64,000 bases of DNA from Myxococcota bacterium. Lineage in GTDB: Bacteria > Myxococcota_A > UBA9160 > UBA4427. Under the pieces are notes generated by a model. That model was not told where the DNA came from. It searched no databases and saw nothing but the letters and a program-made list of their open reading frames with translations. The translations under genes and the position numbers were made by a program. The stretch covers positions 4,832,001 through 4,896,000 of the forward strand of contig OZ252299.1 of the NCBI GenBank assembly GCA_965250285.1, read 5' to 3'. Below are positions 3,782 through 61,559 of the stretch, in pieces. The first letter of the stretch is position 1; each line of letters opens with the position of its first letter.

Positions 3782-3827
3782 TCGTGCGACGCTGGGCCGC
3801 GCGCGTTCGTGCGACGCTAGGCCGCGC
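3782..3827. repeat. 21-bp direct repeat, period 25, spanning the rlmE stop codon
   Basis: TCGTGCGACGCTGGGCCGCGC (3782-3802) vs TCGTGCGACGCTAGGCCGCGC (3807-3827), 20/21 identical. Confidence 0.85.
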
Positions 3828-4431
3828 CTTCGAAGCCGCGTGCGAGCAGGTACTTTTCGGTCGAGCCCTTGCGCGTGCTCTTGCACTTGATGGTCTTGGC
3901 CTTGTCGAAGCGCTGGCCGAGCCGCTTCACGGCAGCCTGGGCTTCGGGCCCGTCGAGGATCTTGATCAACAGATCGCCCCCCGCGCGCAGCAGCCGCGGC
4001 AGCTGCCACTCGATCGCCTCGAGCAGGCGCTCCTCCATCGCGCGGTCGCGCTCGCGTACGCCCGTCAGCTTCGGTGCGGCATCGGAGAGCACGACGTCCG
4101 CCGCCCCTTCGAGCAGCTCGACGAGCCGGTCGGTCGTGGCCGCATCTTCGAGATCGCCGACGAAGGCCTCGACGTTCGACTCGGCGAACGGCGCCTCGAG
4201 CTCGGCGAGATCGACGCCGACGACACGCCCGCTCCCCCCGACGATGCTCGACGCGTACTGCATCCAGCCCCCCGGCCAGCAGCCCAGGTCGGCGACCTTC
4301 TGCCCCTGGGCGAGCACGCGATGCGCCTTCTGCATCTCGTCGAGCTTGTAGTACGCGCGAGAGCGGGTCCCTTCGCTCTTCGCCTTCTGATGAAAATGAT
4401 CCTTGCGCTCGTACCGTGCCAAAGCGCGCAC
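3817..4431 (-). CDS. rlmE: 23S rRNA Um2552 methyltransferase RlmE (start may be TTG 4422)
   Basis: DHFHQKAKSEGTRSRAYYKL, DLGCWPGGW, VLSDAAP, LIK and STEKY. The K-D-K-E tetrad is present. Confidence 0.92.
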   Translation of the reverse strand: MRALARYERKDHFHQKAKSEGTRSRAYYKLDEMQKAHRVLAQGQKVADLGCWPGGWMQYASSIVGGSGRVVGVDLAELEAPFAESNVEAFVGDLEDAATTDRLVELLEGAADVVLSDAAPKLTGVRERDRAMEERLLEAIEWQLPRLLRAGGDLLIKILDGPEAQAAVKRLGQRFDKAKTIKCKSTRKGSTEKYLLARGFEGAA

Positions 4432-4460
4432 CTCCGGCGATCCGCCGCCTCGAACGCACA

Positions 4461-4490
4461 GCGCCGTCCGCCGGGGTCGACGGACGGCGC
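4461..4490 (-). terminator. GC-rich hairpin downstream of rplC (possible terminator or stabiliser)
   Basis: GCGCCGTCCG-N10-CGGACGGCGC perfect 10-bp stem; weak U tract. Confidence 0.45.
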
Positions 4491-4534
4491 CTCGATTCGG
4501 TTCGACCTCTGCGCCCTCGGGCGCGGGGAACGGA

Positions 4535-5182
4535 TCAGTGACCGGTGCCGACCGCCTTGCGGACGCTCACGATGCCGTTGTTGTGACCCGGTACGGCGCC
4601 GCGGACGAAGATCAGATTGCGCTCGGCATCGAGCTTCACGACCTCGAGGTTCTTCGTCGTGACTCGAACGTTGCCCATCTGACCCGCATGCTTCTGCCCC
4701 TTGATGACTCGGCCGGGGTTGGCGCCCGCACCGATCGAGCCCGGGTGCCGGAAGTACTCGTGCGTACCGTGCGACCGCTTCTTGATCGCGAAGCCATGGC
4801 GCTTGACGACGCCCTGGAAGCCACGGCCCTTCGAAGTGCCGATCACGTCGACGCGCTCACCCTCTTCGAACTGGTCGAGGCCCAGCTCCTGGCCGACCTC
4901 GAGCTCGGCGATTTGCTCGGCCGAGAGCCGGCTCTCCTTCAGGTGTCGCTTCGGCGAGACGCCGGCCTTCGCGAAGTGACCCTGCATGGGCTTGGTCACG
5001 AGCTTCTCGCGCTTGTCGCCGGTGCCGAGCTGAATGGCGTCGTAGCCGTCGGCGCCGTCGCTGGTCTTCTTCTGGACGATCACGTTCTGGTCGAGCACCA
5101 GGACGGTGCAGGGGACGGCCTCGCCGTTCTCGGCATAGACCTGCGTCATGCCGAGCTTTCGGCACATCAGTTCGATGGACAC
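4535..5182 (-). CDS. rplC: 50S ribosomal protein L3
   Basis: KLGMTQ, DGYDAIQLG, SKGRGFQGVVKRHGF, PGSIG..PGRV and GAVPG motifs. GTG 5182 with GGGAG RBS; the ORF-track N-terminal extension is spurious. Confidence 0.97.
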   Translation of the reverse strand: MSIELMCRKLGMTQVYAENGEAVPCTVLVLDQNVIVQKKTSDGADGYDAIQLGTGDKREKLVTKPMQGHFAKAGVSPKRHLKESRLSAEQIAELEVGQELGLDQFEEGERVDVIGTSKGRGFQGVVKRHGFAIKKRSHGTHEYFRHPGSIGAGANPGRVIKGQKHAGQMGNVRVTTKNLEVVKLDAERNLIFVRGAVPGHNNGIVSVRKAVGTGH

Positions 5183-5382
5183 GGGTGGATCTCCCGGCTC
5201 CGGATTGGAACGCGCATGCGTTCGTCGCGGGCCAAAGGGTTGGCTGACCGGGTGCGATGCCCGGCCTCTCTTCCTCGCCCGGCGCGACGGCGGCGGCCCG
5301 AAGCGCTCGGGATGCGGCAGACGGCGGCGGGGCGGGTCTCGGGCGGGGCGCCAGCGGCGCTTCGGGTGCCCGAGGGCCGCGC

Positions 5383-18703: not shown

Positions 18704-19726
18704 TCAGCGCGATCCGGCCACCGGCTGGCTGGCCCGTCGATGCGGCGATGGCCGCGTCGCGGAGGGTCGAGACCGGGCCAACGTGGTCGACGGAAGCTCG
18801 CCGAACTGCCGGCGATAGTCGGCCGCGAGCTGCCCCATGTGGCGGAAGCCGTGCTCGGTCGCCAGGTCGACGATGCGCGCCCGTTCATCCGAGTCGAGCA
18901 GAGCCTTGCGCAGCGCGTCCAACCGGATCGCCTTCAAGAAGTTCTGCGGCGTCACCTCGAGGCGCTCGCGAAAGGCGTAGTCGAGCGTGCGCCAGCTCGC
19001 GCCGCTGGCTTCACGCATCCCTTCGACCGTCGGCCGTTCGCCCCCTTGGTCGAGCGCGTATGTGCGGGCTCGTTCGAACGCGAGATCACGCAGTCGCGGC
19101 GCGGCGGGGGGCGATGTCTCTCGGGGCGCTCCACCGATCGACAAGAGGAGCTGGGGCAGACTTCGCGTGAGGCGCTCGCAGCAGGCGTCCAGGTCGGATC
19201 GTGATGCGTCGACACTCCGCGGCAGGCCCGCCAGCAGCGCGCGAAGCGCAGTCAGCTGAGCCGATTCGGCGCGCGACACGCCGACCGCGCGCACCCGATC
19301 GAAGCGATCGGATCGCCCCAGGGTCGCGGCGCAGCTTTCGAGGAGCTCGTCTGCGAGCGACATCGTCCAGACTCCGAAGCCCGGACGCGAGCTGGCCTCG
19401 AACCCGTCTCGCTCGGAGAACACGGCGAACTCGGCGTCGGAGAACGGGCGACCGCACCAGTGGACACCGTCGGTCCCTGGATCGAGCACGGCGAACGTGC
19501 GCATGCCGACCGGGCTCTGCCCCTGCTGATCGTAGGCACGTTCGAAGCGTGCCCGCGTCACCAGGACGCCGGGCGCCGAGATCTGGACGAGCTCGGCGGG
19601 TGAATCGCCCGCATCGACCTGACGGAACTCGAGCGACCACCCGCTGATCGACTCGGCGAACGCGTCGTAGTCGGGAAACCGGGCCGATGCGATCTCGACA
19701 TCACGCGTCGAAACGTGCGCAGCCAA
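18704..19726 (-). CDS. AraC-family (EutR-like) transcriptional regulator
   Basis: C-terminal SWRTLDYAFRE..TPQNFLKAIRL..HGFRHMGQLAADYRRQFGELPS. Divergent from the sulfatase operon. Confidence 0.9.
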   Translation of the reverse strand: MAAHVSTRDVEIASARFPDYDAFAESISGWSLEFRQVDAGDSPAELVQISAPGVLVTRARFERAYDQQGQSPVGMRTFAVLDPGTDGVHWCGRPFSDAEFAVFSERDGFEASSRPGFGVWTMSLADELLESCAATLGRSDRFDRVRAVGVSRAESAQLTALRALLAGLPRSVDASRSDLDACCERLTRSLPQLLLSIGGAPRETSPPAAPRLRDLAFERARTYALDQGGERPTVEGMREASGASWRTLDYAFRERLEVTPQNFLKAIRLDALRKALLDSDERARIVDLATEHGFRHMGQLAADYRRQFGELPSTTLARSRPSATRPSPHRRASQPVAGSR

Positions 19727-19776
19727 CGGATGCCTCCCTAGACGCCAGGGTGTGCGCAGCCAACGGATGCCTCCCT
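19715..19776. repeat. Perfect 25-bp direct repeat (period 37) duplicating the AraC RBS and TTG start
   Basis: GTGCGCAGCCAACGGATGCCTCCCT at 19715-19739 and 19752-19776. Confidence 0.95.
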
Positions 19777-29933: not shown

Positions 29934-31088
29934 GTGTCACGACTCGCCCTGACCGGCGGTGTTCTGGTCGATCCCGAGGCCGAGCACGCCGGCGAAGCCA
30001 CGCTCCTCGTCGAAGCCGGGCGCATCATCGATCGCGTGGGCGCGCAGGATCCGGTCGGCAGCGACTGGCGACGCGTCGACATGAGCGAACGGTTCGTCAC
30101 GCCCGGCTTCATCGACCTGCACTTCCATGGCGAGCTGGCGCACGCGCCCGTGGAGGGGTTCGGCGCCGCACTCGCGCGCAGCGCCGCGCACATGCTGGCG
30201 GGCGGCACCACTACCTTTCTCGCAACGACGATGGCCTGGCCCCACGACGAGCTCGCCGAGGCGCTGCCGGCTCTCTGCGCGGCCGCGTCGGCGCCGGCCC
30301 CCGGCGGCGCCCGCTGCGTCGGGCTTCATCTCGAGGGGCCGTGGATCTCGGGCGCAGCGCCGGGTGCGATGCAGGCCGAGTGCATGCGGCCATTCGATCG
30401 AAAACGCGACGGCGACCTGCTCGACCGCGCCGGCGACGCTCTCTCGATGGTGACGCTCGCCCCCGAGATCGAGGGCGCCGATGACCTGCTCGACGAGCTC
30501 GGGCGTCGCGGCGTGCTCGCCGCCCTCGGCCACAGCCAGGCCTCCCCGGCCTGCATCGATGCCGCCATCGACCGCGGCCTGCGACACGTGACTCATCTGT
30601 TCAACGCCATGGGGCCGGTCCACCATCGCGCGCCGGGCGTCGCGGGCACGGCCCTCACGCGCGATGCGCTGCACTGCGATCTGATCTGCGATGGCGCTCA
30701 TGTCCACCCCGACATGGTGCGCGTCGCAGCGCGCGCGCTGGGCGAGCGCCTCGTGTTGATCAGCGACCGCGTCGACCTCGCGACGCCGCCCCACGACGAG
30801 CCCGCCGACGTCGAACCGAATCGTCTGGCCGATGGCACGCTGCTCGGGAGCCGACTGCACCTCTCTCAGGCCATCGCGAATCTGCGCGCCTTCGCACAGA
30901 CGTCCCTGCACGACGCCGTCGCGGCGTGCACGTTGCGCCCCTCCCAGCTGCTCGGGCTCGAGCACGAATGCGGCACCTTTCGGCGCGGCGCCCGCGCCGA
31001 CCTCGCCGTGCTCGACGCCAAGGGCGCGCTCGTAGAGACCTGGCTCGAAGGTGCGCCGGTTGATCGGCCCGATCCCGAACCGACGTAG
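29934..31088 (+). CDS. nagA: N-acetylglucosamine-6-phosphate deacetylase-like amidohydrolase
   Basis: PGFIDLHFHG, GLHLEGPWI, TLAPE, GHS, THLFNAM, DGAHVHP and GARADL. Confidence 0.85.
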   Translation: MSRLALTGGVLVDPEAEHAGEATLLVEAGRIIDRVGAQDPVGSDWRRVDMSERFVTPGFIDLHFHGELAHAPVEGFGAALARSAAHMLAGGTTTFLATTMAWPHDELAEALPALCAAASAPAPGGARCVGLHLEGPWISGAAPGAMQAECMRPFDRKRDGDLLDRAGDALSMVTLAPEIEGADDLLDELGRRGVLAALGHSQASPACIDAAIDRGLRHVTHLFNAMGPVHHRAPGVAGTALTRDALHCDLICDGAHVHPDMVRVAARALGERLVLISDRVDLATPPHDEPADVEPNRLADGTLLGSRLHLSQAIANLRAFAQTSLHDAVAACTLRPSQLLGLEHECGTFRRGARADLAVLDAKGALVETWLEGAPVDRPDPEPT

Positions 31089-31146: not shown

Positions 31147-31962
31147 ATGCCCTTCCCGCCCGCCCACATCGTCGCCGCCGCTCCGCTGGCGAGACCCATG
31201 GGCCGGCTCGGCGTCGTGTCCGCGCTGTCGATCGGCGCGATGACGCCCGATCTCGCGTACTTCTTGCCGCTCGAGATACCGCGCTGGGAGAGCCACTCGA
31301 TGCCGGGTCTCTTCTGGTTCTGCCTGCCCGCCGGCCTCGCCACGTGGGCCCTCTTCGTCACGTGCGTCGCGCCCCTCGTGCATGACGTCGCGCCCCAGGC
31401 GCTGCGGGCCCGCCTGCCCAGCGCCTGGCGCGCCGGCGCGTGGCCGACGAAACAGTTCGGAGCAGCGGCGCTCTGCGTCTTGATCGGCGCGGCCACCCAT
31501 CTGGCGTGGGATTCGTTCACGCATCTCGGCACGCCCGTCACACTCAACACGCCCGTGCTCACCCAGCTGATCGGCACATTCGGCGGCTACCGCGTGCGCG
31601 GCGTGACCGTCCTGCAGCATACGAGCACCCTCTTCGGGTTCACGGTGCTCGCGATCTGGGGACGAAGCTGGTGGCGACGCACCCAGCCCGTGCCCGTGCC
31701 GCCGCCCCCGACGCTTGGGGTGCGCCTCGTGTTGATCGTGCTGGCGCTCGGTCCCGCACTCTGGCTCGGCGGTGACGCGGCGATCACACGTTTCGGCTGG
31801 CCGCACGAGCCCATGCTCAAGCTCAGGCAGGCGGCCACCGGGATCGTGATGACCGGCGGGACGATCTTGATGTGGAGCCTCGTGGGCGTGTCGATCGCGT
31901 GGCGCGTCCTGCGCACCCTGCCCTCGCTGCAGGGCGAGCACGAGCGACTCGAACCGAGCTGA
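31147..31962 (+). CDS. DUF4184 family membrane protein
   Basis: MPFPPAH, IGAMTPDL.YF, THLAWDSFTH and LQHTSTLFG. Confidence 0.85.
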   Translation: MPFPPAHIVAAAPLARPMGRLGVVSALSIGAMTPDLAYFLPLEIPRWESHSMPGLFWFCLPAGLATWALFVTCVAPLVHDVAPQALRARLPSAWRAGAWPTKQFGAAALCVLIGAATHLAWDSFTHLGTPVTLNTPVLTQLIGTFGGYRVRGVTVLQHTSTLFGFTVLAIWGRSWWRRTQPVPVPPPPTLGVRLVLIVLALGPALWLGGDAAITRFGWPHEPMLKLRQAATGIVMTGGTILMWSLVGVSIAWRVLRTLPSLQGEHERLEPS

Positions 31963-31995
31963 ACGACGAGCACGAGCGACTCGAACCGAGCTGAA
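31935..31995. repeat. Perfect 29-bp direct repeat (period 32) duplicating the DUF4184 gene 3' end and stop
   Basis: CGAGCACGAGCGACTCGAACCGAGCTGAA at 31935-31963 and 31967-31995. Confidence 0.95.
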
Positions 31996-34802: not shown

Positions 34803-34842
34803 GCGCGGTGGCTCTCCGAGGTGAGGGGCGACGCCGATCCGG

Positions 34843-35598
34843 CTACAGGTTGCCCTTGTGCTGAACGCCGTCGACCGGGAGGTTCGCGCCCGCGATCCAG
34901 CTCGCACGTTCACTCGCGAGAAAGACCACGGCGTTCGCCACCTCGAAGTCGGTGCCGAGCCGGCCGAAGGGGATCGAGGCCAGGATCGTGTCGTACTGCT
35001 CGCGGGCCACGTTCTTGATCGTCTCCCACATGCCGCCTTCGAACTCGATCGAGCCCGGTGACACGCAGTTCACGCGAATGCCCTTCGGCGCCAGCGTCTC
35101 GGCGAGTGTCTTCGAGTGGCTGATGAGCGCCGCCTTCATTGCCGCGTACGATGGAGGCGAGCCCGCCTCGAGCCCCGAGGTCGAAGCGATGTGAATGACC
35201 GAGCCGCCGCCGCCCGCTTCGAGCCACGGCACCACCTTTCGGGTGGCCCGCACCGTAGCCAGAACGTCGACGTCGAAGGCCGTCTGCCAGCCGGCGTCGT
35301 CGTCGCTGACGCCGAACCCGCTCGCGTTGTTCACGAGCACGTCGACGCCGCCGAGCGCCGCGTGCGCGGCTTCGAGGAAGTCATCGAGCGAAGCCGAATC
35401 GCGCACGTCACACGCCTGGGCGTGCACCTTCACGCCCTTCGCCTGCAGCTCCTCGGCCGTCTTTGCGAGTGTCTCCTCGGTCCTCGCGCAGATCGCGAGG
35501 TTCGCGCCCTCCTCGGCGAACGTCAGCGCGATGGCGCGACCGATCCCCTTGCTGGCGCCCGTGACGACCACGTTCTTTCCGCTCAGTCCCAGATCCAT
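34843..35598 (-). CDS. Classical SDR oxidoreductase
   Basis: TGASKGIG, LVNNA, YAAMK and VSPG. Confidence 0.92.
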   Translation of the reverse strand: MDLGLSGKNVVVTGASKGIGRAIALTFAEEGANLAICARTEETLAKTAEELQAKGVKVHAQACDVRDSASLDDFLEAAHAALGGVDVLVNNASGFGVSDDDAGWQTAFDVDVLATVRATRKVVPWLEAGGGGSVIHIASTSGLEAGSPPSYAAMKAALISHSKTLAETLAPKGIRVNCVSPGSIEFEGGMWETIKNVAREQYDTILASIPFGRLGTDFEVANAVVFLASERASWIAGANLPVDGVQHKGNL

Positions 35599-35607
35599 GT
35601 CTTCTCC

Positions 35608-36060
35608 TCAGGCCGCCGACTCGACCGTGATCTCGGTCTTGACCGAGTTCGCGATGAAGCACTGCTCGTGTGCCTTGTGGTGCAGCTTCTCGATCGCCTC
35701 CGCATCTGGGCGCTTCTCACCGCCCCACTCGATGCGCGGCCGCAAGACGACGCGCGTCACCGCCAGCCGTCCCTCTTCGTTCTTTTCCATCGTGCCCACC
35801 GCATCGTCGACGTACGACTCGACGACGTAACGCCGCCGCGCGGCCAGCGCGAGAAACGTCAACATGTGACAGCTCGACAGCGAGGCGACGAGGGCCTCTT
35901 CGGGATCGACCCGGTCGGCGTTGCCCAGAAAGTCGGGGGCCGCGCTCGCATCGACCGCCGAGCCACCGGGGAAGTGCCACGCGTGATCGCGCGAGTACGT
36001 GTCGTAGGTGTAGTCGCGATCGCCGCGCGACCATTCGACCTTGCAGTGATGTTCCGACAT
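35608..36060 (-). CDS. OsmC/Ohr family protein
   Basis: DPEEALVASLSSCHMLTFL and AHEQCFIANSV. Confidence 0.92.
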   Translation of the reverse strand: MSEHHCKVEWSRGDRDYTYDTYSRDHAWHFPGGSAVDASAAPDFLGNADRVDPEEALVASLSSCHMLTFLALAARRRYVVESYVDDAVGTMEKNEEGRLAVTRVVLRPRIEWGGEKRPDAEAIEKLHHKAHEQCFIANSVKTEITVESAA

Positions 36061-36167
36061 GGTCCCTCCGCATCCACGCGGCCCAGCGTCGGGCCCGGCG
36101 GACGAACGGAGAGCCTAGCCCGAACCGAGGCGCGGGATCGGGGGCGCACGCAGCGGTGTGGAATCGC

Positions 36168-36899
36168 TCAGGCGGGGGTCGGATCGCGCAGCCAAACGAG
36201 GGGCTGCCGTGCAACGAACGCGAGATAGAGACAGACCGAAGCCGACACGCCGGCGAACGCGTCGACCAGCAGCAGCGCGGGCGAATCGAACATCGAGACG
36301 CCGAGCAGCTTCGCCGTCGCGTCGACCCCGCAGACGACGCCGGCCGATCCGATCCCGATCCCCCACAGCAGCAGCCGGTCGCTCGCCACGGCGTCGCCCA
36401 GGCCGAGGGCCAGGCGGCGGCGCACCAGCCCCTGGTGCTGAATCGACTTGACCGCAGCGAACGCCAGCGCGAAGGCGCGCATGAAGTCGGCGACGCGGGT
36501 GGGCCAGCCGGCCGGTCCGACCGCCTGGAAGCCGGTCACCGGGATCTCGGCGAGCCAGAGCAGCGCCATCCAGATCGCGAAGCCCCTCGAGAGCCAAGCC
36601 ATGCGGCGATCGAGCGCATGGAACACGCCGCACGTGAACGCGAAGATGAGCGCGGTACCGAGGTTGAGGCTGGCGGCAGCGATCGCCCAGACGGCGCGCC
36701 CGAGACCCGGGTGGATGCCGGCCGCGGGCTCGCACAGACCCGTGAGTGTGAAGCCGACCGGACCGATCGCCAGCAGAGCGATCCCCGCCTGAAGCTCGGG
36801 TCGCTCGCGCGTGCGTCGCCAGACCGCCAGCAGGCGGATGCCCACCGTTCCGGTCGAGAGGCACATCAAGCCGATCGCGATCCAGGCCATCCAGCTCAT
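36168..36899 (-). CDS. Hypothetical multi-pass (~7 TM) membrane protein
   Basis: Hydrophobic segments from MSWMAWIAIG, plus RRTRERPEL and RRRLALGLGD. Confidence 0.7.
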   Translation of the reverse strand: MSWMAWIAIGLMCLSTGTVGIRLLAVWRRTRERPELQAGIALLAIGPVGFTLTGLCEPAAGIHPGLGRAVWAIAAASLNLGTALIFAFTCGVFHALDRRMAWLSRGFAIWMALLWLAEIPVTGFQAVGPAGWPTRVADFMRAFALAFAAVKSIQHQGLVRRRLALGLGDAVASDRLLLWGIGIGSAGVVCGVDATAKLLGVSMFDSPALLLVDAFAGVSASVCLYLAFVARQPLVWLRDPTPA

Positions 36900-36993
36900 A
36901 CCCGTGTTACATCGGCGAGCCGACTGCCAAAATGAGCGTCGGCATCGATGAATCGCGTGAGAGCAGAAGATCGAACGCGCCTCGGGCTCGGAG

Positions 36994-37090
36994 CGCACCT
37001 CGACGGCTCCGGGCCCCAAGGCGACGACCCCGAGCCGCCACTCGACGACCCCGGGCCGCACCTCGAATGCGCCGGGCCGCGTCTCGACGC
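36994..37090. repeat. Degenerate 21-bp tandem repeat, about 4.5 copies, intergenic
   Basis: CGCACCTCGACGGCTCCGGGC / CCCAAGGCGACGACCCCGAGC / CGCCACTCGACGACCCCGGGC / CGCACCTCGAATGCGCCGGGC / CGCGTCTCGACG. Confidence 0.75.
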
Positions 37091-37120
37091 GATCGCGGCG
37101 CCCGGCCGCCGCCCCGCCCC

Positions 37121-38065
37121 TCAGAGCCGCACGGTCACCTTGCCGACCGCGCGCCCGGTCATCGAGCGGCGAAAGGCGTCGGGCAGCGCTTGGAGCCCCT
37201 CGAAGACCCGGTCGATGACGATCTCGAGCTCGCCCGCTTCGACCCGCCCGCAGAGCAGCGACAGGTCGTCGCCGCTCGGCTGGAGCATGGTCAGCACGGC
37301 CCGCCGGCTGGAGATCAGCGGCCAGAGCACGAGCGCGCCGAGCTGGCGCAGCTCGGGCGCCACGAGCGAGACGCGTCCTTCGCTCGCAGCCAGCGTGTGC
37401 AGCGCGCCGGCGCCGAGGGCGCCGACGCAGTCGACCACGCTGTCGAACTCGCCCCAATCCGCCGGATCGACCCGGGCGGTGTAGTCGATCACCTCGTGCG
37501 CACCGAGCCGCTCGGCGAGCGCTGCGTTGCGAGCGCTGCAGATCCCGGTCACCCGCGCGCCGGCGTGCCGCGCGAGCTGCACCGCGAAGTGACCCACGCC
37601 CCCCGACGCACCGATCACGCAGACGCGGCGATCCAGCTCGAGGGCCTGCACGTCGCGCAGCGCCTGCAGCGCCGTCTGGCCCGCGAGCGGCAGCGCCGCG
37701 GCGACCTCGGGCACGAGCCCGGCCGGTGCGCGCGCACTCATCGCGGCCGGCACCGCGATCCGCTCGGCGGCCGCGCCGCCCTTCAGACCCGGCTGCCGAC
37801 ACACCACGCGCTCACCGACCGCAAAGCCCGTGACCCCTGCGCCCAGCGACTCGACGACGCCGCACACGTCGAAGCACGGAATCGCGGGAAACCCCGGTCG
37901 CAGGATCAGCCGGTGGCGGCCGGTCATCATCTTCCAGTCGACGGGATTCACCGAGAACGCCTCGACGCGCAGCCCGAGCTCGCCGGCCGCCGGCTCGGGG
38001 TCGGGCCGCTCGACGACCTCAGCGGTCTCGGGGGCCCCGAATCGGTGGTAGACGACGGCGCGCAT
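37121..38065 (-). CDS. MDR-family NAD(P)-dependent oxidoreductase (quinone reductase-like)
   Basis: MRAVVYHRFG, SVNPVDWK, GASGGVGHFAVQLA and GRAVGK. Confidence 0.9.
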   Translation of the reverse strand: MRAVVYHRFGAPETAEVVERPDPEPAAGELGLRVEAFSVNPVDWKMMTGRHRLILRPGFPAIPCFDVCGVVESLGAGVTGFAVGERVVCRQPGLKGGAAAERIAVPAAMSARAPAGLVPEVAAALPLAGQTALQALRDVQALELDRRVCVIGASGGVGHFAVQLARHAGARVTGICSARNAALAERLGAHEVIDYTARVDPADWGEFDSVVDCVGALGAGALHTLAASEGRVSLVAPELRQLGALVLWPLISSRRAVLTMLQPSGDDLSLLCGRVEAGELEIVIDRVFEGLQALPDAFRRSMTGRAVGKVTVRL

Positions 38066-38106
38066 GGCGTGCGGGCTCCTCGGTCTCGGATGCCGTCGTG
38101 GCGGGG

Positions 38107-38589
38107 CTAGGGCGCGACTTCCCAGGTCGACGTGCCCGGTGCGACCACGCCTTGCTGCATCAGCTCGTCGCGCAGCTTCTCGACCCGGCGGCGATTCACC
38201 CCGAGATCCGAGCGCCCCTTGCGCGAGGCCGAGCGCACGTCGATGCGTGCCTCGTGCGGGTGCAGCCGAAACTCGACGTCGTCGACGAAGCGAAACAGAA
38301 AGCTCGTCGCTTCGGCGTGAATCGCCGTGTTGTCGGCCTGCACCACCTTCGTGCGCGGCGAGTTCTCGAGCACGCTGATCAGCACGGTCCACGCGACCTC
38401 GGGCGCACCGACGATCACGAAGGGCTCGATGTACGCCGGGCTGGTCTCGGGGGCCAGGCTCGACACGCAGTTGGGCGTATCGGGGCAGGGGGCCAGCGCC
38501 GCGACGCCGACGTCGGCCGGTTGCTTGCCACCGCAGCCCACCGCGAGACCGGCCGCGAACAGGAACACACAGAGAAGTCGAAGGCTCAC
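38107..38589 (-). CDS. DUF1499 family lipoprotein
   Basis: Lipobox AVGC, PCPDTPNCVSS, FVDDVEF and RSASRKGRSDLGVNRRR. Confidence 0.88.
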   Translation of the reverse strand: MSLRLLCVFLFAAGLAVGCGGKQPADVGVAALAPCPDTPNCVSSLAPETSPAYIEPFVIVGAPEVAWTVLISVLENSPRTKVVQADNTAIHAEATSFLFRFVDDVEFRLHPHEARIDVRSASRKGRSDLGVNRRRVEKLRDELMQQGVVAPGTSTWEVAP

Positions 38590-38909
38590 AGGCGAGACGG
38601 TAGCCGGCCTTTCGGGCGCAGCCCGCAGCCTGCACCCGATGCAGCGTCGACGCTGCGCTGGCGGGTCTCGGCCCCAGGCAGAAGAGGCTCGCGGCGGGCT
38701 GCATCGCGTCTCGTTCGGGCGGGCGGGCAGGCGCATTCGGCACGACACTTGAAGTGACGAGAACGGAGTGGCAAACGCGACGCGTCGGGCGTCGAACGGC
38801 GTGAGCCCAAACGCCTCGGTGTGCACCGCTGGGAGCCCATCGAGGACGCATCCGACGAAGCCGAGCCAAACCCGCGGGTTCGCGCCCCCCGCATCACCGG
38901 GAGACCTCG

Positions 38910-40202
38910 ATGACACTCCGCACCGCCTGGCACGACACCCTCTTCACGGCGCGCACACTGGCCACGGCCGGGCTCGAACAGCTGACGAGCGGCGTCGTGT
39001 TCAATCCCACCGATCCCGGTCTTCGCGCCGACCCGTATCCCTTCTACCAGCGACTGCGCGAGCAGGATCCGATGCACCGCAGCTGGGCGGCGGGCGGCTG
39101 GGTCTTGTCGCGATACGAGGACATTCGCGGCGTACTCGCCGACAAGAGCTTCTCGGCAGACGAGCGCAACTGGTCGCTCTACAAGATGTTCCGCGCGCGA
39201 TCGGAGGCCCATGGCCTGCGCGACCCCTACGAAGACGACACGATGACGATGCTGCGGCTCGATCCGCCCGACCACACGCGGCTTCGCCGCCTCGTGTCGA
39301 AGGCGTTCACGCCGCGCTCGGTCGAGGCGCTGCGCGGGCGCGCCGAGGAGATCCTCGACGAGCTGCTCGACGGACGCGGCCGCGCGGGTCGACTCGAACT
39401 GGTGAGCGATCTGGCCGCGCCCTTCCCGATCATCATGATCGCCGAGATGCTCGGCGTGCCGGCCGAGGACCGCGATCGCTTTCGCTTCTGGTCGGACGAA
39501 GCGGTCAAGACCCTGGGCGACAACGCGTTCGAAGACGTCCGCGAAGGCCGCGCCGCGATGGACGAGTTCGGCGACTACATCGAGGCCGTCGCCGAGCAGC
39601 GCCGGGCCGAACCGCGCGACGACCTGCTCTCGGGTCTCGTCGCCGCCGAAGAAGAGGGCGACCGACTCTCGATGTCCGAGCTGCGGGCGACGTGTGTGCT
39701 GCTCATGGTCGCGGGCAACGAGACGACGACGAGCCTGATCGGCAACTCGGTGCTCGCGCTGCTCGCGCATCCCGAGCAGGCGGCGCTGCTGCGCGAAGAG
39801 CCGAAGCGCATCGCAGGCGCCGTCGACGAGCTGCTTCGCTATGACAGCCCAGTGCAGTTCACGTCGCGCATCGCGACACGCGATACCGAGCTGCACGGCG
39901 CCCGGGTTCGGGCCGGGCAGCAGCTGGTGCTGCTGCTCGGTAGCGCCAACCGCGATCCGGCCGCGTTCGAGCGACCCGACTCGCTCGACGTCACCCGCGA
40001 CGCGGGCAACCATCTCTCGTTCAGCTTCGGGCTGCACCGCTGCCTCGGTGCCCAGCTCGCGAAGCTCGAGGGCGAGCTGGCCCTCGAGGCGCTGCTGTCG
40101 CGGTTCCCCGAGCTGCGGCTCGCCGACACGGCCGAGCGCGCCGTCGAGTGGGGAACCAATACGATCCTGCGTGGCCCGAAGCGGCTCGACCTGCTCTACT
40201 GA
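38910..40202 (+). CDS. Cytochrome P450
   Basis: DPPDHTRLRR, AGNETT, ELLR (ExxR) and heme motif FSFGLHRCLG. Confidence 0.96.
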   Translation: MTLRTAWHDTLFTARTLATAGLEQLTSGVVFNPTDPGLRADPYPFYQRLREQDPMHRSWAAGGWVLSRYEDIRGVLADKSFSADERNWSLYKMFRARSEAHGLRDPYEDDTMTMLRLDPPDHTRLRRLVSKAFTPRSVEALRGRAEEILDELLDGRGRAGRLELVSDLAAPFPIIMIAEMLGVPAEDRDRFRFWSDEAVKTLGDNAFEDVREGRAAMDEFGDYIEAVAEQRRAEPRDDLLSGLVAAEEEGDRLSMSELRATCVLLMVAGNETTTSLIGNSVLALLAHPEQAALLREEPKRIAGAVDELLRYDSPVQFTSRIATRDTELHGARVRAGQQLVLLLGSANRDPAAFERPDSLDVTRDAGNHLSFSFGLHRCLGAQLAKLEGELALEALLSRFPELRLADTAERAVEWGTNTILRGPKRLDLLY

Positions 40203-40345
40203 GTCGGGCTTGACCGAGTCGGGACGACCCTGCCGATGAGCCGGTCGGCCTCGTGACTTCGGGTCGGCCGCCGACCGTCTACGCTTGGCCGACCCGTCCC
40301 TCGGCGAAGAGGCGAGCAGAAGCACCCCGCCTCGAGGAGAAACCC

Positions 40346-41788
40346 ATGCCTGCGCCCCCCGCCGCAGCCAGCCTCGCCGAGGCGACGCGCGACGCCCCGC
40401 ATGCCGGGATGACGGCGACGACGAGCGAAGCCCTTCCGTTCTCGACGCTGTTCATCTACTCGGCGCCGGCGCTCGGCCAGTCGTTCATGTTCATCTTCGC
40501 GGGGATGTACCTGCTCAAGTACTCGACCGACGTCCTCGGCGTGGCCCCTGCGGCGATGGGCATGATCTTCATGGTCTCGAAGTTCTGGGACGCGTTCTCC
40601 GACCCGCTGGCCGGCTATCTGTCCGACCGCACGCGATCGCGGTGGGGGCGCAGACGCCCGTGGATGTTCGCCGGCGCCTTGCCGGTCTGCGTCGTCTTCT
40701 TTCTCATGCTCACGCCGCCGGCGTCGCTCTCGAGCGGCGCCCTCACGGCCTGGATGGCCGTCTGCGTCGTCGGCTTCTACACGGCGATGACCGTCTTCAA
40801 CATGCCGCACGATGCCCTCGGCGCAGAGCTCTCGAGCGACTACACCGAGCGCAACCGCATCTTCGGTGTCCGGCGCGCCGTACAGGGCCTCGGCATGATC
40901 GGCATGTTCGCGGCCATCGGCTTTCTCGCCGAGAGCGAGACACCGCGCAGCTTCGCGTTCGCACTCGCGGCCACCGTCTCGATCGGCACGCTCGCCTTGA
41001 TGCTCGTCCCCGTGTTCCTGCTGCGCGAGCGGCCCGAGTTTCAGGGGCGGGGCGCGAACGTGGCCTGGGAGGCGGTGGCCGACGTCTTTCGTAATCCGCA
41101 CGCGCGGCTGCTCATGGGCGTGTACCTGCTTCAGCAGATCGGGATCGGGGGCCTCAGCCTGATCGTCGCCTACTGGGCCGACTACGTGCTCGGCGACGCC
41201 GCTTTTCTCTCGACGCTGATGGTGTCGCTCTTTGCGGCTTCGGTGGTCGGCATTCCGTTCTGGATCCGCCTCGGGCGTCACTACGAGAAACGGACGCTCG
41301 TGCTGATCAGCATGGTGATCGTCGGCGCGGCGCTCGCGAGCATCGGCCTCGTGCCCGAAGGCGGCTTCGCGATCACGATCGTCGTCGCGATCATCGCGGG
41401 GCTCGCGATCTCGTGCCTCGACGTGATCCTGCCGAGCATCCAGGCCGACGTCATCGACTTCGACGAGTTCCGCACGGGTGAACGCAAGGAGGGCGTCTAC
41501 TTCGCCGTCTGGCACCTCGCACAGAAGGTCGCGTCGGGTCTGGCCGCGGGCGGCGTGGGCTTCGTGCTGTCGGGCGTCGGCTTCGAGCCGAACGCCGAGC
41601 AGACGCCCGAAACCACCCAGGCGATCCGGATCGTGATGAGCGCGTTCCCGCTGACCGTGTATGGAGCCGGCACCCTGCTCTTCTGGTTCTTCCGCATGTC
41701 GAAGCAGGAACACGCCGACGTGCTCGCAGCACTCGACGCGCGTCGAGCCGCCGACCACGAGCTGGCGAAACGCACCGGGCGCGCGTGA
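40346..41788 (+). CDS. MFS transporter, GPH (glycoside-pentoside-hexuronide) family
   Basis: WDAFSDPLAGYLSDRTRSRWGRRRPW and ADVIDFDEFRTGERKEG. Confidence 0.92.
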   Translation: MPAPPAAASLAEATRDAPHAGMTATTSEALPFSTLFIYSAPALGQSFMFIFAGMYLLKYSTDVLGVAPAAMGMIFMVSKFWDAFSDPLAGYLSDRTRSRWGRRRPWMFAGALPVCVVFFLMLTPPASLSSGALTAWMAVCVVGFYTAMTVFNMPHDALGAELSSDYTERNRIFGVRRAVQGLGMIGMFAAIGFLAESETPRSFAFALAATVSIGTLALMLVPVFLLRERPEFQGRGANVAWEAVADVFRNPHARLLMGVYLLQQIGIGGLSLIVAYWADYVLGDAAFLSTLMVSLFAASVVGIPFWIRLGRHYEKRTLVLISMVIVGAALASIGLVPEGGFAITIVVAIIAGLAISCLDVILPSIQADVIDFDEFRTGERKEGVYFAVWHLAQKVASGLAAGGVGFVLSGVGFEPNAEQTPETTQAIRIVMSAFPLTVYGAGTLLFWFFRMSKQEHADVLAALDARRAADHELAKRTGRA

Positions 41789-41862
41789 GTGACCGTCGCG
41801 CGGCACTCGACTCGAGCGAGGCCGCCTGGCACGCGCCGGCAAACCGCACCGGGCGCGCCTGA
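41725..41862 (+). repeat. Diverged tandem copy of the MFS gene 3' end (period 74)
   Basis: 41725-41788 vs 41799-41862, 49/64 identical and ungapped; both end in TGA. Confidence 0.85.
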
Positions 41863-41867
41863 CCGCG

Positions 41868-42782
41868 TCAACGGCCCGTCGATTTCTCGTCGCGGCGCGC
41901 CTCCCACTCTTCGACCGTCTTCGGCCAGTCCTGCTTGAGCAATCGCGAGAGCGCCCGGTCGGCCAGCAGCTTGCCGCCCGTCTGACACGTCGGGCAGTAG
42001 TTGACCTCGTTCTCGGCACGCACGATCCGCTGCACCTTCTGACCGCACACCGGACAGGTCTCGCCGAAACGACCGTGCACCGCCATCTCGGGCCGAAACG
42101 CAGTGACCTTCTCGGGGAAGCCGTCGCCGACGTCGGCCCGCAGTCGCTCGGTCCATGCCCGCAGCGTGTCGCGGGTCGCGTCGTACAGTCGCGCGATCGT
42201 TTCGTCGTCGAGGTTCTTCGTGAGCTGCACGGGTGAGAGCCGGGCCGCGTGCAGGATCTCGTCGCTGTAGGCATTGCCGATGCCCGAGAAGAGATGCGGC
42301 GCCGTGAGCGATCGCTTGAGCGTGTGGTTCTCGCAGCGAAGCGCCTCGCCGAACTCGTCGAAGCTGCAGTCGAGCGGCTCGACGCCGCCCGGATCGTGTT
42401 CGGCCAGACCGGCGCGACCTTCGACCAGATGAATGCGCGCCCGCTTCTTCGTGCCCTGCTCGGTCAGATGCATCGAGCCGTGCTCGAAGTCGAAGCTCGC
42501 GTGACCGGTCTTGCGCGGCGGCGTCGCACCCGCCTTCTTCCAGTGGAAGCGCCCGGCGATCATCAGGTGCACGACCACGAAGAGCTCGCCCTCGAGCTCC
42601 CAGACGACGCGTTTGCCGAGGCGCGAGAAGCCGACGACGCTGCGTCCGGCGAAGGCATCGACGCCGGGCTCGACGGTCTTCAGCACCGACGGGCTGAGAA
42701 TGCGAAGACGCTCGAGGGGGCGACCGCCGAGGAGCGCTTGGAGGCGCTCGACGTACAGCGTGACGTCAGGGAGCTCGGGCAT
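41868..42782 (-). CDS. Fpg/Nei family DNA glycosylase
   Basis: MPELPDV, HLMIAG, GIGNAYSDEIL and zinc finger CPVC..CPTCQ. Confidence 0.92.
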   Translation of the reverse strand: MPELPDVTLYVERLQALLGGRPLERLRILSPSVLKTVEPGVDAFAGRSVVGFSRLGKRVVWELEGELFVVVHLMIAGRFHWKKAGATPPRKTGHASFDFEHGSMHLTEQGTKKRARIHLVEGRAGLAEHDPGGVEPLDCSFDEFGEALRCENHTLKRSLTAPHLFSGIGNAYSDEILHAARLSPVQLTKNLDDETIARLYDATRDTLRAWTERLRADVGDGFPEKVTAFRPEMAVHGRFGETCPVCGQKVQRIVRAENEVNYCPTCQTGGKLLADRALSRLLKQDWPKTVEEWEARRDEKSTGR

Positions 42783-42880
42783 CGCGCCGGCCTCCGGTGG
42801 GGAACGGATCGGGCCCCGACAGCATCGCATAGGGCGGCGCTCCACCGGCGGCCCACCGAGATCGCTACGCTCTTCACGTC

Positions 42881-43498
42881 ATGAGACGACGCTTCGCCCG
42901 ACCTCTCCGCGCCCTGCCCGCGCACCTGCTCGCCCTGTCGATCGCCCTCTCGCTCGTGTCGGGGTGGCTCGCCGCGCCGGCTGCGCTGGCCCAGGGCGTC
43001 GACGTCAACGATCTGCTCCAGCCGAGCACGCCGTCACAGATCGAGTTCACCGTGAGCGCGTTCGGGCCCGGCGACGTGCGCAAAACCGAGACGCAGCGCG
43101 AGCAGGTGACCGACCTCGCACGCCGACGCCTGGGCATGCCGATCGGCCGAGATACGAAGACCGACATCGAGACGATGCAGCGACTGCTCGACGGCGGCTA
43201 CGTGGACGAGAACGACACCTTCATGCTGCAGTCGTTCGGCGTCGTGCTCGGCGATGCGCTCGCCCGCGACATGCGGATCCTTCAGTGGGCGGTGGTCGAC
43301 GACAAGTTTGGCCACAGTCGTGCGCTGCAGTACCGCACGACCGACCAGGTCTTCTTCCCGGTCACGATGATCTCGAAGCGCGTGCAGCACGGGGAGACGG
43401 TCGACGTGCAGGCCCTCTACGACCAGGTGAAGGCCGGCGCCGAAGCACTCGAGGTCAACCGGGACGAGCACCTGCGCCGCACGCGTGGCCGACGCTGA
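42881..43498 (+). CDS. Exported DUF3806-domain protein
   Basis: Signal peptide, LQSFGVVLGD, W.VVDDKFG.SRAL and FPVTMISKR. Confidence 0.75.
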   Translation: MRRRFARPLRALPAHLLALSIALSLVSGWLAAPAALAQGVDVNDLLQPSTPSQIEFTVSAFGPGDVRKTETQREQVTDLARRRLGMPIGRDTKTDIETMQRLLDGGYVDENDTFMLQSFGVVLGDALARDMRILQWAVVDDKFGHSRALQYRTTDQVFFPVTMISKRVQHGETVDVQALYDQVKAGAEALEVNRDEHLRRTRGRR

Positions 43499-43507
43499 GC
43501 CCTCGAC

Positions 43508-48723: not shown

Positions 48724-49806
48724 ATGTTCGACCCCTTCGAAGACGAAGAGGCATCCGGGGAGCCGCCGCGGCCGCCGTTCCCGACGCCGATGGTGGCGTT
48801 GATGCTCACGTTCGGCGCCTCGCTGGCGGCGATCGTGATCGCGCTCGTCTTCTTCGAACGCCTCGATCTGCTCGCCGTCGGCGTCGGCGAGGCGCTCGGT
48901 GTGGGCCTCGTCGCGACGCTGGCCGCGCGGCGCGTGCCCGAGCCCCAGGCCGAGCGGCTCGGTCTGCAGGGCTTTGCGCCGCGGCTGATCCCGGCGCTGA
49001 TCTGCATCGTGCCGATCGTCTTCCTCACGAGTGAGCTCGACAACGTCGGCCGCAGCATCGACGGCTGGATGCCCCCCCTCGCTCTCGAAGAGGCGCTCGT
49101 CGTCGAGCCGCCCGCAACCGGCGAAGAGACCAGCGACGCCACCACGCCCGCGACCGGCGACGAGCGCAGCGACGCCACCCCGGTCGCGCCCGACGAAGGG
49201 AGCAGCGACACCGAGACGCCGATCGAGTCGTTGGACGACGCCGCGATCGCCGAGGCGCTCGCCCAAGCCGATGCCCTGTTGGAAGAGGGTGCGGGGCCGT
49301 CGGATGATGCCACCGCACCGCTCGACCTCGAGCCACCCGAAGGCTTCGCGCTCTTGCAGGTCGCGATCGTGCGGCTCGGCATCTCGCCCGTCGTGCAGGG
49401 CTTTCTCTTCTTCGGTGTGATCCTGCAGGGCGTGGTGACCTGGCTCGGTCGTACGCGCGGGCTCCTCCTCACCGCGTGTCTCTACTCGCTGATTCACGCC
49501 TTCGCGCAGGCGCCGACCGATCCCGGCCTGTTTCGCGCCGTCGCCGCGATCGTCTCGTCGATCGGTGTCGGCCTCGTGCTCGGGATCGCGCGTCTCTCGA
49601 CGGGTTCGGTGCTGGCGCCCATTCTGCTCGACACCGCCCTCAAGGCCGTCGGTCTCTTCGCGTGGACATCCCCCGCCGTCTTCGCCGTGCGTGGCTACAA
49701 CGTCGGACCCGACGCGCACACCCCCATCGTCGTGCTGATCCCATCGCTGATCGCCGTCGCGTGGGGCCTGCGTGTCCTCGTTCGACAAAATCGAGGCGCG
49801 TGGTGA
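48724..49806 (+). CDS. CPBP/Abi-like intramembrane protein with degenerate catalytic motifs and an acidic insert
   Basis: PVVQGFLFFG (EExxxR position), LYSLIH and GSVLAPILLDTALK (HxxxN position). Acidic repeat PATG.E.SDAT. Confidence 0.7.
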   Translation: MFDPFEDEEASGEPPRPPFPTPMVALMLTFGASLAAIVIALVFFERLDLLAVGVGEALGVGLVATLAARRVPEPQAERLGLQGFAPRLIPALICIVPIVFLTSELDNVGRSIDGWMPPLALEEALVVEPPATGEETSDATTPATGDERSDATPVAPDEGSSDTETPIESLDDAAIAEALAQADALLEEGAGPSDDATAPLDLEPPEGFALLQVAIVRLGISPVVQGFLFFGVILQGVVTWLGRTRGLLLTACLYSLIHAFAQAPTDPGLFRAVAAIVSSIGVGLVLGIARLSTGSVLAPILLDTALKAVGLFAWTSPAVFAVRGYNVGPDAHTPIVVLIPSLIAVAWGLRVLVRQNRGAW

Positions 49807-59239: not shown

Positions 59240-60083
59240 CGGCGAACACACCTCGCAGGCGCGCGAAGACCGCTGCGCCGATCCACGCCATCGCCCACGA
59301 CACACCGAGGAGGAGCAGCAGCGGGGCGGTCGCAGGCATGACACCGAAAGCTGCGACGTCGCGGACGAGCTCGACGGGGATCGTCAGCGGATTCAGCATC
59401 ATCCACGGGCGCATGGCCTCGGGCACGACACTGAGCGGATACAGGATCGGAGACAAGAACATCAGCGCCGTGAGCAGCAGCTGCATGCCTTCGCGCAGAT
59501 CGCGAACGAGCGCGCCCGCGCAAGCGATCACGTAGGTCAGGCCGAGCGTCGCGAGCACGAGCGGAATCAGCACGACCGGCAGCCACACCAACGTGGCGGG
59601 GGGGATGCCCTGGAGCAGCGTCCATGCGACGAGAAAGATCGCGATGCGGACGCCCAGGTGGAAGAGGGCCGTGAGTGACACCACCCAGGGCAGCACCTCG
59701 AGCGGGAACACCACCTTCTTCACGTAGCTGGCATGACCCTCGAGCAGGGTCGCGGCCTCGCCCAGACACTCGCTGACGTACCAGAAGACGCAGAGCCCGA
59801 GAAACAGGAGCAGGGCGTACTGCAGGGTGTCGGGCTCGTCGCTCCAGCGCGAGCCGAACATCACACCGAAGACGAGGGTGAAGATCGCGAGGGTGAGCAG
59901 CGGCGAGAGCACCGACCAGGACGCGCCGAGCATCGAGCCGCGGTAGCGCGCGACGATGCGGCGCCACGTGAGTCGTGTGGCGAGCTCTCGGTGGTCGGTG
60001 AGCGCGCGGAGCGGCGCGAACGGGCCAGGCCAACTCGCGCGCGGCGTCCTCGAGACGAGCGCCGGCTCTCCGGATGCCGCCAT
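59229..60083 (-). CDS. wzm: Polysaccharide ABC exporter permease
   Basis: RYRGSMLG..W..L.PL, YVKKVVFP, FLSPILYP and LNPL. Confidence 0.93.
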   Translation of the reverse strand: MAASGEPALVSRTPRASWPGPFAPLRALTDHRELATRLTWRRIVARYRGSMLGASWSVLSPLLTLAIFTLVFGVMFGSRWSDEPDTLQYALLLFLGLCVFWYVSECLGEAATLLEGHASYVKKVVFPLEVLPWVVSLTALFHLGVRIAIFLVAWTLLQGIPPATLVWLPVVLIPLVLATLGLTYVIACAGALVRDLREGMQLLLTALMFLSPILYPLSVVPEAMRPWMMLNPLTIPVELVRDVAAFGVMPATAPLLLLLGVSWAMAWIGAAVFARLRGVFADVV

Positions 60084-60144
60084 GTCGGGCTCTCCTCTCG
60101 GTCGGCGGCGCCGGGCCCCGCGCCGCGGCCTTCCGCCCGAAGAG

Positions 60145-60381
60145 ACTAGTACGGGCGGGGGCCTCAGGCGGATCGCGCCGATCGGGCTCGGCTGTGGGGT
60201 GCGGGCGGCTCGGCTCTCTGAGGCGAGTGCGGTCGGGCGCTCCGCCGAGGCGTGAAGATCAGGGGCCGTCGCCGGGTTCGCGCGGCTCGGCGGCCGGAAG
60301 CGAGTGCGGTCGGGCGCTCCGCCGAGGCGCGAAGATCAGGGGCCGTCGCCGGGTTCGCGCGGCTCGGCGGCCGGAAGCGAG
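60145..60381. repeat. 77-bp tandem repeat of the GT2 gene 3' end: two near-identical copies plus one degenerate copy
   Basis: 60223-60299 vs 60300-60376 differ at one base. 60145-60222 aligns loosely (AGT.CGG.CGGG, GATC, GGGT.CG.GCGGCTCGGC). Confidence 0.9.
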
Positions 60382-61385
60382 AGCGGCGCGGTCAACAGCT
60401 TCGTCTTGAGGCTGAGGTCGAGCAGCAGATCCTGCCGACCGATCCCCAGCTGCATCGAGCCGAAGGCGCGGCGAAGGCGCGACACGCCCGGTCGGTAGAG
60501 CGCCAGGTAGCGATCGAGCAGGCTGGTCGCGTGGTGGATTCGGTCGGCCGTCTCACCCGGCGGCCAGTCCGGCGCGATCTCTTTGAGCCGCGCCCGAAGC
60601 GCGCGGCACTGGCGCACCGTGTCGAGGAGCGGCTCGTTCGAGTGACGCTGCCAGCGCAGCGTGCGCTGCCCGAGCTCGCGCACGACTTCGACGTACGGCT
60701 TCGCTCCGATCTGGTTTCGGTCGTGCTGGCGATAGCGAACGGTCGCGCGTTCGCGTGCCATCAGATGGCCGGTCGAGGCGGCGCAGAGCGCGATCCACCA
60801 GTCGTGCATGATGGCTTCATCGGGCACCGGCAACGCGATCTCGGCGAGGGGGCGATTGAACATCGTCGCGCAACCGGTCACGAAGTTCTGGACGGCGAGC
60901 ACCTCGAGCGCGCCTCGACTCGCATGGCGAATGCGTTGGTGGGCGAAGAACGAGGGCGCGAGCGGGCGACCTTCCTCGTCGACAAGTTCGAGGTCACCGT
61001 GGACGAGCAGGGGCTCCTCGGGGTGGTGCGCGCGGCCCGCGATCTCGAGTGAATCGGCGAGGTGGGTCGGGCGCCACTCGTCGTCCTGGTCCGCGAGCGC
61101 GATCCACTGCGCGTCGGCGTCGAGGGCGTCTCGAATCAGCCGGCCGTAGCTCGCTCGGGTACCCAGGCGGTCGGCCCGTGCGGGCGCCGGGCGAACCCGC
61201 GCGTCGCGCGCGTGCCAGCGATCGATCTGCTCGGCCGTCTGCGCATCGCCGTCGTCGTGACGCAGCCAGACGCAGAGCGCATCGTGGGTCTGTTCGACGA
61301 TCGTCTCGAGCTGTCGATCGAGGAGTGCTGGCCGCGGATGAAAGAGCGAGCACACGACGTGCACGGTGCGATCGACGGTCGTCAC
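60336..61385 (-). CDS. GT2 glycosyltransferase (rhamnosyltransferase-like)
   Basis: RHDDG, LADQDDEW, NFVTGCATMFNR, MHDWW and YRQH..NQIG. Confidence 0.9.
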   Translation of the reverse strand: MTTVDRTVHVVCSLFHPRPALLDRQLETIVEQTHDALCVWLRHDDGDAQTAEQIDRWHARDARVRPAPARADRLGTRASYGRLIRDALDADAQWIALADQDDEWRPTHLADSLEIAGRAHHPEEPLLVHGDLELVDEEGRPLAPSFFAHQRIRHASRGALEVLAVQNFVTGCATMFNRPLAEIALPVPDEAIMHDWWIALCAASTGHLMARERATVRYRQHDRNQIGAKPYVEVVRELGQRTLRWQRHSNEPLLDTVRQCRALRARLKEIAPDWPPGETADRIHHATSLLDRYLALYRPGVSRLRRAFGSMQLGIGRQDLLLDLSLKTKLLTAPLSLPAAEPREPGDGP

Positions 61386-61413
61386 GTCACGTCTCCCTTC
61401 GGTGCCCGACCGG

Positions 61414-61559
61414 TCGCATCATCGACGTCGATCCAACCCCGGCGGCTGGCCGCCGATGCGCAGGACATCCGCCGTCATCTCTTGCTCGCATCATCGGCCG
61501 AGGTCCACATCCAGCCGCTCGCCGACGATGCACAGCACATCGGCCGTGATCGCCTGCTC
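61414..61559 (-). repeat. Diverged tandem copy of the tmk 3' end (period 72)
   Basis: 61414-61485 vs 61486-61557, 54/72 identical and ungapped; stop codon conserved. Confidence 0.85.

Follow-up and report, generated by a model that had tools for sequence, protein, structure and literature searches.

Tandem duplication of short local segments has been described in several systems. In microhomology-mediated tandem duplication (MTD), as presented in the main text of Wei et al. (2026, PMC13167724), single-copy segments are duplicated head to tail in events that are mostly neutral, depleted from coding sequence and able to expand in copy number, and units of <50 bp account for 38% of the bacterial events. 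The tandem repeats of Borgs (Schoelmerich et al. 2023, PMC9879509) have locally unique units with flanking partial repeats; units within open reading frames (ORFs) keep the frame and give disordered linkers, and the first unit often lies within the end of a gene. The satellites of Bacillus (Subirana and Messeguer 2021, PMC8161180) have a lineage-specific fixed unit length and unrelated sequences. Mycobacterial MIRU-VNTR loci are minisatellites with units of 40–100 bp at gene junctions (PMC2734929), and Ehrlichia ruminantium has a repeat-rich genome with lineage-specific expansion of its intergenic gaps (PMC3287509). In these respects each system resembles the tandem arrays described here, which were noticed in a 64,000-nt stretch (the window) of the genome of a Myxococcota bacterium (GCA_965250285.1, contig OZ252299.1, positions 4,832,001 to 4,896,000). 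In the window several unrelated genes are followed by a copy, or echo, of their own last codons. Over the genome as a whole the units of such arrays, those shorter than ~25 nt apart, fall mostly into two length bands, centred near 38 and 77 nt.

The source genome (G000) is a single contig (C1) of 6.25 Mb with 68.6% GC and 95% completeness, in which the window is G000:C1:4832001-4896000. A purpose-written hexamer-based caller gave 5251 genes (87% coding); its stops are more trustworthy than its starts, and the intergenic target is too large by the genes that it missed. Repeats were collected by an ungapped self-match scan at periods 12–400 and a score of at least 26, with far offsets as the control. 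The scan returned 1342 hits compared with 79 at far offsets, grouped as 652 clusters.

The unit lengths of the non-coding arrays are strongly banded. There are 166 with units of 25–110 nt, divided as 15 at 25–32 nt, 105 at 33–47 nt, 6 at 48–69 nt, 40 at 70–86 nt and none at 87–110 nt. The bands have means of 38.3 ± 3.9 and 76.8 ± 3.8 nt, a ratio of 1:2, and the gap differs significantly from the upper band (p = 1e-9). Both bands hold at three score thresholds and in two-copy and multi-copy arrays. Each spans ~14 nt and shows no helical fine structure. The periods of 72–77 nt that the first-pass annotation of the window had singled out thus lie inside the upper band of a genome-wide spectrum. 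The lower-band mean is 38.4 nt at stops, 38.0 nt in intergenic DNA and 38.7 nt at starts, and young in-frame coding arrays also peak in the lower band (21 of 44), atop an ordinary background of protein repeats. Because contexts under unlike constraints share the bands, the length was likely set when the duplication formed and not by selection. The 77-mers show weak half-period similarity at most (best scores 5–16 against a control 95th percentile of 12; p = 0.01), and therefore most are not dimers of 38-mers. A further 57 events have units of 18–24 nt, where detection is limited and a genome of another genus (G025) shows them too; a third band is not claimed.

It could be argued instead that all lengths arise and that selection keeps those of ~38 and ~77 nt as a repeat spacing for a nucleoid protein or an RNA-binding factor, as has been proposed for the constant-size, variable-sequence repeats of 20–21 and 52 nt in Bacillus (PMC8161180). 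The bands are however also present in single two-copy events and in coding linkers, the units have no common motif, the width of the bands and their lack of helical structure do not suggest a spacing requirement, the loci are mostly not common to the congener and no histone fold was found. Selected spacing is for these reasons improbable. A histone-fold protein as the cause was tried and rejected: PF00808 has no match in the source genome, and PF09123 matches one of 31 genomes of the order, neither G000 nor its congener G001. Nuclease footprints of 35/70 bp for the Bdellovibrio histone were likewise discarded, PMC10627809 describing no defined fragments.

The genus is represented by two genomes in the data set. 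The congener G001 is ~80% identical to G000, in 460 contigs and 83% complete; the band test covered 589 kb of it, about a tenth of its genome. Its periods are 33–42, 70, 77 and 77 nt, mostly at loci of its own, and it has nine in-band non-triplet events where 8.5 are expected. One orthologous stop carries independent arrays in the two species, with a period of 22 in G000 and 40 in G001. By contrast, partial samples of six genomes of other genera together with small core loci (1.58 Mb, of which G025 in one contig and G016 in 10 contigs supply 710 kb) contain a single in-band event where 22.8 are expected. Fragmented assemblies may break at perfect arrays; G001 nevertheless shows the bands. Banded duplication is active in two species of one genus, and its length is genus-specific. 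No closer relative was found in JGI metagenomes, where the best matches to the GT2 gene of the window are 59–64% identical. A repeat family dispersed over the genome (45 motif hits) also forms tandem arrays, of period 119–146, for example at G000:C1:5764128-5764670. This family is REP/BIME-like and separate from the 38/77-nt process.

The echoes are real and are not an artefact of assembly. Read support comes from k-mer unitigs of three sequencing runs, all belonging to a single study that may be the source of the genome. In run X1 the shared segments of the GT2 array and of the intergenic period-77 array have a depth of 65–67, compared with 33–36 for the flanks and 32–35 for the junction unitigs; a shared segment at about twice the flank depth with a junction unitig at flank depth is the graph shape of a true duplicate. 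A single unitig matches window positions 30500–43500 without a difference, and the DUF4184 and MFS echoes lie within it. The sizes 39, 77 and 79 do resemble k values used by assemblers, but that numerical resemblance is all that favours a combination of assembly artefacts and chance matches. Of 158 binned arrays, 10 reach an identity of 99% or more, the bands are broad, and the arrays bear the marks of frame and orientation filters. The unitig graph refutes an artefact for the four window arrays compared with the runs, and at far offsets the control has 0.2 hits per period. We regard this explanation as highly implausible. Where the first-pass annotation had suggested looking for collapsed or expanded alleles, the duplicates are real in the unitigs and no such alleles are seen in the contigs, which drop rare variants.

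Gene ends are clearly enriched in copies, as the same annotation had supposed. In 65 of 4474 genes the final 60 nt are found again in the 150 nt that follow; the corresponding counts are none with the downstream DNA of another gene, 10 at mid-gene positions (9 in frame) and 9 at starts. Arrays inside genes are in frame in 351 cases and out of frame in four. Of the arrays spanning a stop, 105 begin with the gene copy and 10 end with it; 143 arrays are wholly intergenic. A process rather than a repeat family had been proposed, and 155 of 156 units of 30–90 nt indeed have no match elsewhere in the genome. There is no boundary motif, and no k-mer is common to the 156 units after multiple testing. 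The arrays comprise 1.3–5 copies, the stop may lie at any position within the unit, and identities range from <70% to 100%.

The divergence between echo and gene end is the same at the three codon positions (0.126/0.123/0.126; 283 mismatches). In an ortholog control, the last 15 codons of 249 genes compared with G001, the values are 0.141/0.111/0.322. The stop is kept in 66 of 88 echoes, close to the 61.8 expected from overall identity alone. The echoes are therefore decaying copies, and not displaced alleles or alternative tails that have been kept. This bears on two proposals of the first-pass annotation, that allele replacement or the integration and excision of an element leaves the old terminus behind, and that alternative C-termini are stored in the echoes. 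The strong enrichment at stops would fit such origins. Setting aside the MFS echo, which is nearly complete, 17 of the 70–86-nt arrays are partial, with the form X-spacer-X and 20–56 nt repeated, and resemble an insertion with target duplication; moreover a solo Cas1 and the integrase of an integron are encoded in the genome. Yet beyond the absence of a third-position bias, of excess stop retention and of a boundary motif, multi-copy and intergenic arrays fall in the same bands, the integron integrase is also found in relatives without bands, no CRISPR array accompanies the Cas1 of G000, the 83% complete G001 yielded no Cas1, and neither Ku nor reverse transcriptase was found in G000. Both proposals are largely refuted and very unlikely. 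Across genomes, Ku was found in one of five, reverse transcriptase in none of five, Cas1 in two of five and IntI in 14 of 31, and none is genus-specific. Off-target duplication by CRISPR/Cas1 was rejected as well, given the lack of a CRISPR array in G000 and of a detected Cas1 in G001 at that completeness.

The integrase belongs to a chromosomal integron at G000:C1:5462834-5490000, where it scores over the TIGR02249 cut-off and is followed by 49 attC-like sites in ~26 kb. Five further attC-like sites lie at ~109–111 kb, and no second integron integrase was found in the genome. The solo Cas1 (L266:1408-2679; G000:C1 ~3245600-3246850) is a 423-aa ORF with a C-terminal extension and no CRISPR array, adjoining five tandem paralogous secreted-looking genes; from its resemblance we presume that it may be casposon-like.

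Taken together, the echoes are tandem duplications of local DNA, likely made by a genome-wide process of which 104 arrays over stops, together with intergenic, start and in-frame coding arrays, are the product. The extra copies lengthen intergenic space by ~19.7 kb in total, and the duplications uncouple overlapping genes: 16 arrays cover both a stop and the next start, separating genes that formerly overlapped. They also write repeats of 11–14 aa into disordered linkers. Overlapping stop/start arrays with mini-ORF relays are located at G000:C1:3650-3925, 1592906-1593271, 4687506-4687668 and 5104182-5104369; the relays now lie between formerly coupled genes, one of them upstream of a start that we take to be ruvA-like.

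The density of arrays depends strongly on context. Those of 30–47 nt occur at 350 per Mb of target at stops, 55 in intergenic DNA, 53 at starts and 7.7 in frame within genes, and those of 68–88 nt at 79, 12.7, 6.5 and 5.6 respectively. Stops are thus ~6-fold enriched over intergenic DNA. By gene orientation the densities are 375 at convergent stops, 293 at co-directional stops, 154 in convergent gaps, 96 in co-directional gaps and 59 in divergent gaps. From -40 to +320 nt around the stop the density falls through 317, 252, 197, 129, 113 and 55 to 25 per Mb. Contexts rank higher the less regulatory DNA a copy there disturbs, and survivorship is therefore likely to be the main cause: a stop-spanning copy leaves the gene intact, so that echoes would be retained mostly at gene ends. 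A pair of copies of which one is constrained should also stay detectable for longer. The location at gene ends thus probably results mostly from selection and detection bias, and stops are not anchors, although a tendency of events to form near 3′ ends, perhaps tied to termination, may contribute. The first-pass annotation had viewed the process as one acting at gene boundaries. The enrichment there stands; confinement does not, since the bands are found also in intergenic, start and in-frame coding arrays and the stop lies anywhere in the unit.

The profile around the stop could be taken to mean that events form at 3′ ends, where RNA polymerase uncoupled from the ribosome stalls or backtracks past the stop, one or two queued polymerases setting both place and length. 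RNA polymerase has a footprint of ~35–40 bp, and the 1:2 ladder is compatible with one and two such footprints; the peak at the stop with its downstream decay, and the 19 of 27 co-directional intergenic arrays that are closer to the upstream stop, point the same way. Against a role of transcription, the echoes are unrelated to expression as estimated from codons (p = 0.43), and divergent gaps, which have no stop, still hold arrays (12 events, 59 per Mb). There is no band for three footprints, the 119–146-nt arrays being the separate dispersed family, and transcription gives no reason for the restriction to one genus. An origin in transcription is unlikely.

The overall explanation that we favour, and hold to be probable, is a slip in replication or repair with a loop of fixed length, ~38 or ~77 nt, combined with persistence mainly at gene ends. 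The slip would act genome-wide, with short microhomology probably seeding the first copy, and the arrays would then grow to 2–5 copies by ordinary slippage. Stop-spanning copies would survive as harmless. Frameshifting copies are almost completely purged from genes. The overhang past whole copies is at least 4 nt in 21 of the 35 youngest arrays, compared with 19% in simulation, although 12 of the 35 have 1 nt or less and the long ones may be eroded copies. Such overhangs are as expected of microhomology-seeded slippage or of flap re-annealing (PMC13167724). Null or weak results were obtained for array number on the leading and lagging strands (35 and 47), for how far the arrays lie from the skew minimum, for their polarity and the base composition at their boundaries, for indel lengths compared with G001 and for folding energy. 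There is no excess of hairpins at the arrays.

We lean towards the view that the machinery of replication or repair in this genus carries a molecular ruler, which quantises new duplications at one or two ~38-nt units, so that the genome would be a fossil record of the footprint of a protein in vivo, whether a single-strand-binding protein (SSB) wrap, a polymerase array or another protein. The leading guess, a tentative one, is an SSB-type wrap. The SSB of Escherichia coli wraps 17, 35, 56 or 65 nt (PMC9917605). By wrapping the looped or displaced strand such a protein might set the unit length, the loop being held by one wrap mode or another, or by one or two tetramers. Family profile searches found recJ and ExoI in none of 31 genomes of the order, and sbcD is over the cut-off in four of the 31, G000 not among them. 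In an order without detectable RecJ and ExoI, and mostly without SbcD, single-stranded loops would persist, to judge from the genetics of E. coli.

Several observations weigh against this explanation. The units of 38 and 77 nt exceed the 35 and 65 nt of E. coli SSB by 3 and 12 nt, and there is no band near 56 nt. The SSB sequence of G000 is unremarkable among 29 aligned, PolA is equally ordinary, and the exonuclease losses are order-wide; MutS, MutL, ExoVII, RarA, DnaE2, a RecQ-like protein and HU/IHF are all present. No tested gene separates the genus from relatives lacking bands, the searches (which included PolA/ExoIX, DnaE, MutS, MutL, ExoVII, RarA, RecQ-like and HU/IHF) yielding none that is genus-specific. 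As SSB and PolA resemble those of relatives, the SSB guess leaves the genus restriction unexplained. The partial X-spacer-X arrays are also awkward, with just one (at 6017174) having a flank-like spacer; some may be old copies in which X was constrained twice, as a gene end and then as a ribosome-binding site (RBS). Lastly, survivorship may not account for all of the excess at stops, where arrays are 6-fold denser than in intergenic DNA (350 and 55 per Mb of target); even promoter-free convergent gaps are 2.4-fold below stops (154 and 375; six events).

The window is unusually rich in arrays, with five stop echoes where the mean is ~1.1 per 64 kb. The match counts given by the first-pass annotation for five gene ends were all reproduced exactly, and its echo at the AraC-type start was confirmed. 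Family profile matches are over the cut-off for DUF4184, the GPH/MFS transporter, dTMP kinase and HTH_18; for RlmE and GT2 they are below it. The rlmE-like array (3761..3827, minus strand; gene 3817-4422) has a period of 25 and 36/42 matches with a core of 20/21; the gene copy leads, and the stop has been lost from the echo. In the AraC-type array (19715..19776, minus strand; gene 18704-19726) the period is 37 and the copies are identical at 25/25 positions. This echo carries the RBS AGGGAGG and the predicted TTG start, with an unrelated 12-nt spacer between the copies. The DUF4184 stop array (31926..31995, plus strand; gene 31147-31962) has a period of 32 and a core of 29/29. The aged echo at the 3′ end of the GPH/MFS transporter gene (41725..41862, plus strand) has a period of 74 and 49/64 matches; in G001 the interval between the flanking alignments is 62 nt shorter. 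The GT2-like stop array (60197..60386, minus strand; gene 60336-61385) has a period of 77 and ~2.5 copies, the first two identical at 76/77 positions and an older partial third at 29/36. The aged tmk echo (3′ end, 61414..61559, minus strand; period 72, 54/72) is absent from G001, where the interval between flanking alignments is 44 nt compared with 129 nt.

Two further arrays of the window are the same phenomenon and had been missed. One (49109..49212, plus strand) is an in-frame coding array with a period of 36 and ~2.9 copies, in the lower length band, that encodes repeats of 12 aa in an Rce1-like protein, within a linker of low complexity. The other (62477..62641, no strand assigned) has a period of 77 and is wholly intergenic, between the atpE stop and the tmk start, with a unit that contains no stop or start. 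Since both belong to it, the phenomenon extends beyond gene ends. The window also contains the minimum of the cumulative GC skew, at ~59305. Two palindromes that we take from their motif to be parS-like are located 13 kb past its end (G000:C1:4909120 and 4909158); they are 38 nt apart and are two copies of one in-band duplication.

No published 38/77-nt duplication spectrum, nor this lineage, was found in the full-text literature; most subscription papers and the length-table supplements of PMC8161180 and PMC13167724 fall outside that search and may bear on novelty. The gene-end echoes are ordinary survivors of tandem duplication, and it is the quantised, genus-specific unit length that is new. 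The arrays resemble MTD: the unit is copied from adjacent single-copy DNA (the congener lacks the tmk echo), coding sequence is depleted (351 in frame and 4 out of frame; 7.7 compared with 55–350 per Mb), and the decay is flat over codon positions. Overhangs past whole copies are seen in both, and in yeast MTD flap processing is implicated. The main text of Wei et al. (PMC13167724) describes no two-band 38/77 spectrum or genus restriction, its supplementary length figure lying outside this comparison. Borg repeats are described as perfect and A-rich, on archaeal extrachromosomal elements (PMC9879509), whereas those analysed here lie on the chromosome, are GC-neutral, range over all ages and fall into length bands. 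MIRU form a dispersed sequence family (PMC2734929), in contrast to the unique units found here, and the periods in Ehrlichia ruminantium span 1–471 nt (PMC3287509). The Bacillus satellites group into families whose related arrays have four or more copies, strict length and shared short motifs, and are read as functional (PMC8161180). Here there are one-off local copies in arrays of 1.3–5, with a standard deviation of ~3.8 nt, no families and no motif; the sizes are 38 and 77 nt, and the origin is visible at gene ends. A 22/44-nt class of constant-size satellites, from a 2020 J Bacteriol paper, is reportedly also a 1:2 size pair. Constant-size bacterial repeats have been read as selected binding sites (PMC8161180). 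Here the size is fixed even in one-off events of two copies, which decay neutrally and occur in every context, and this points to a mutation mechanism. If that is correct, the ruler would give a mutational, non-adaptive account of constant-size bacterial satellites, whose origin becomes testable through this genus.

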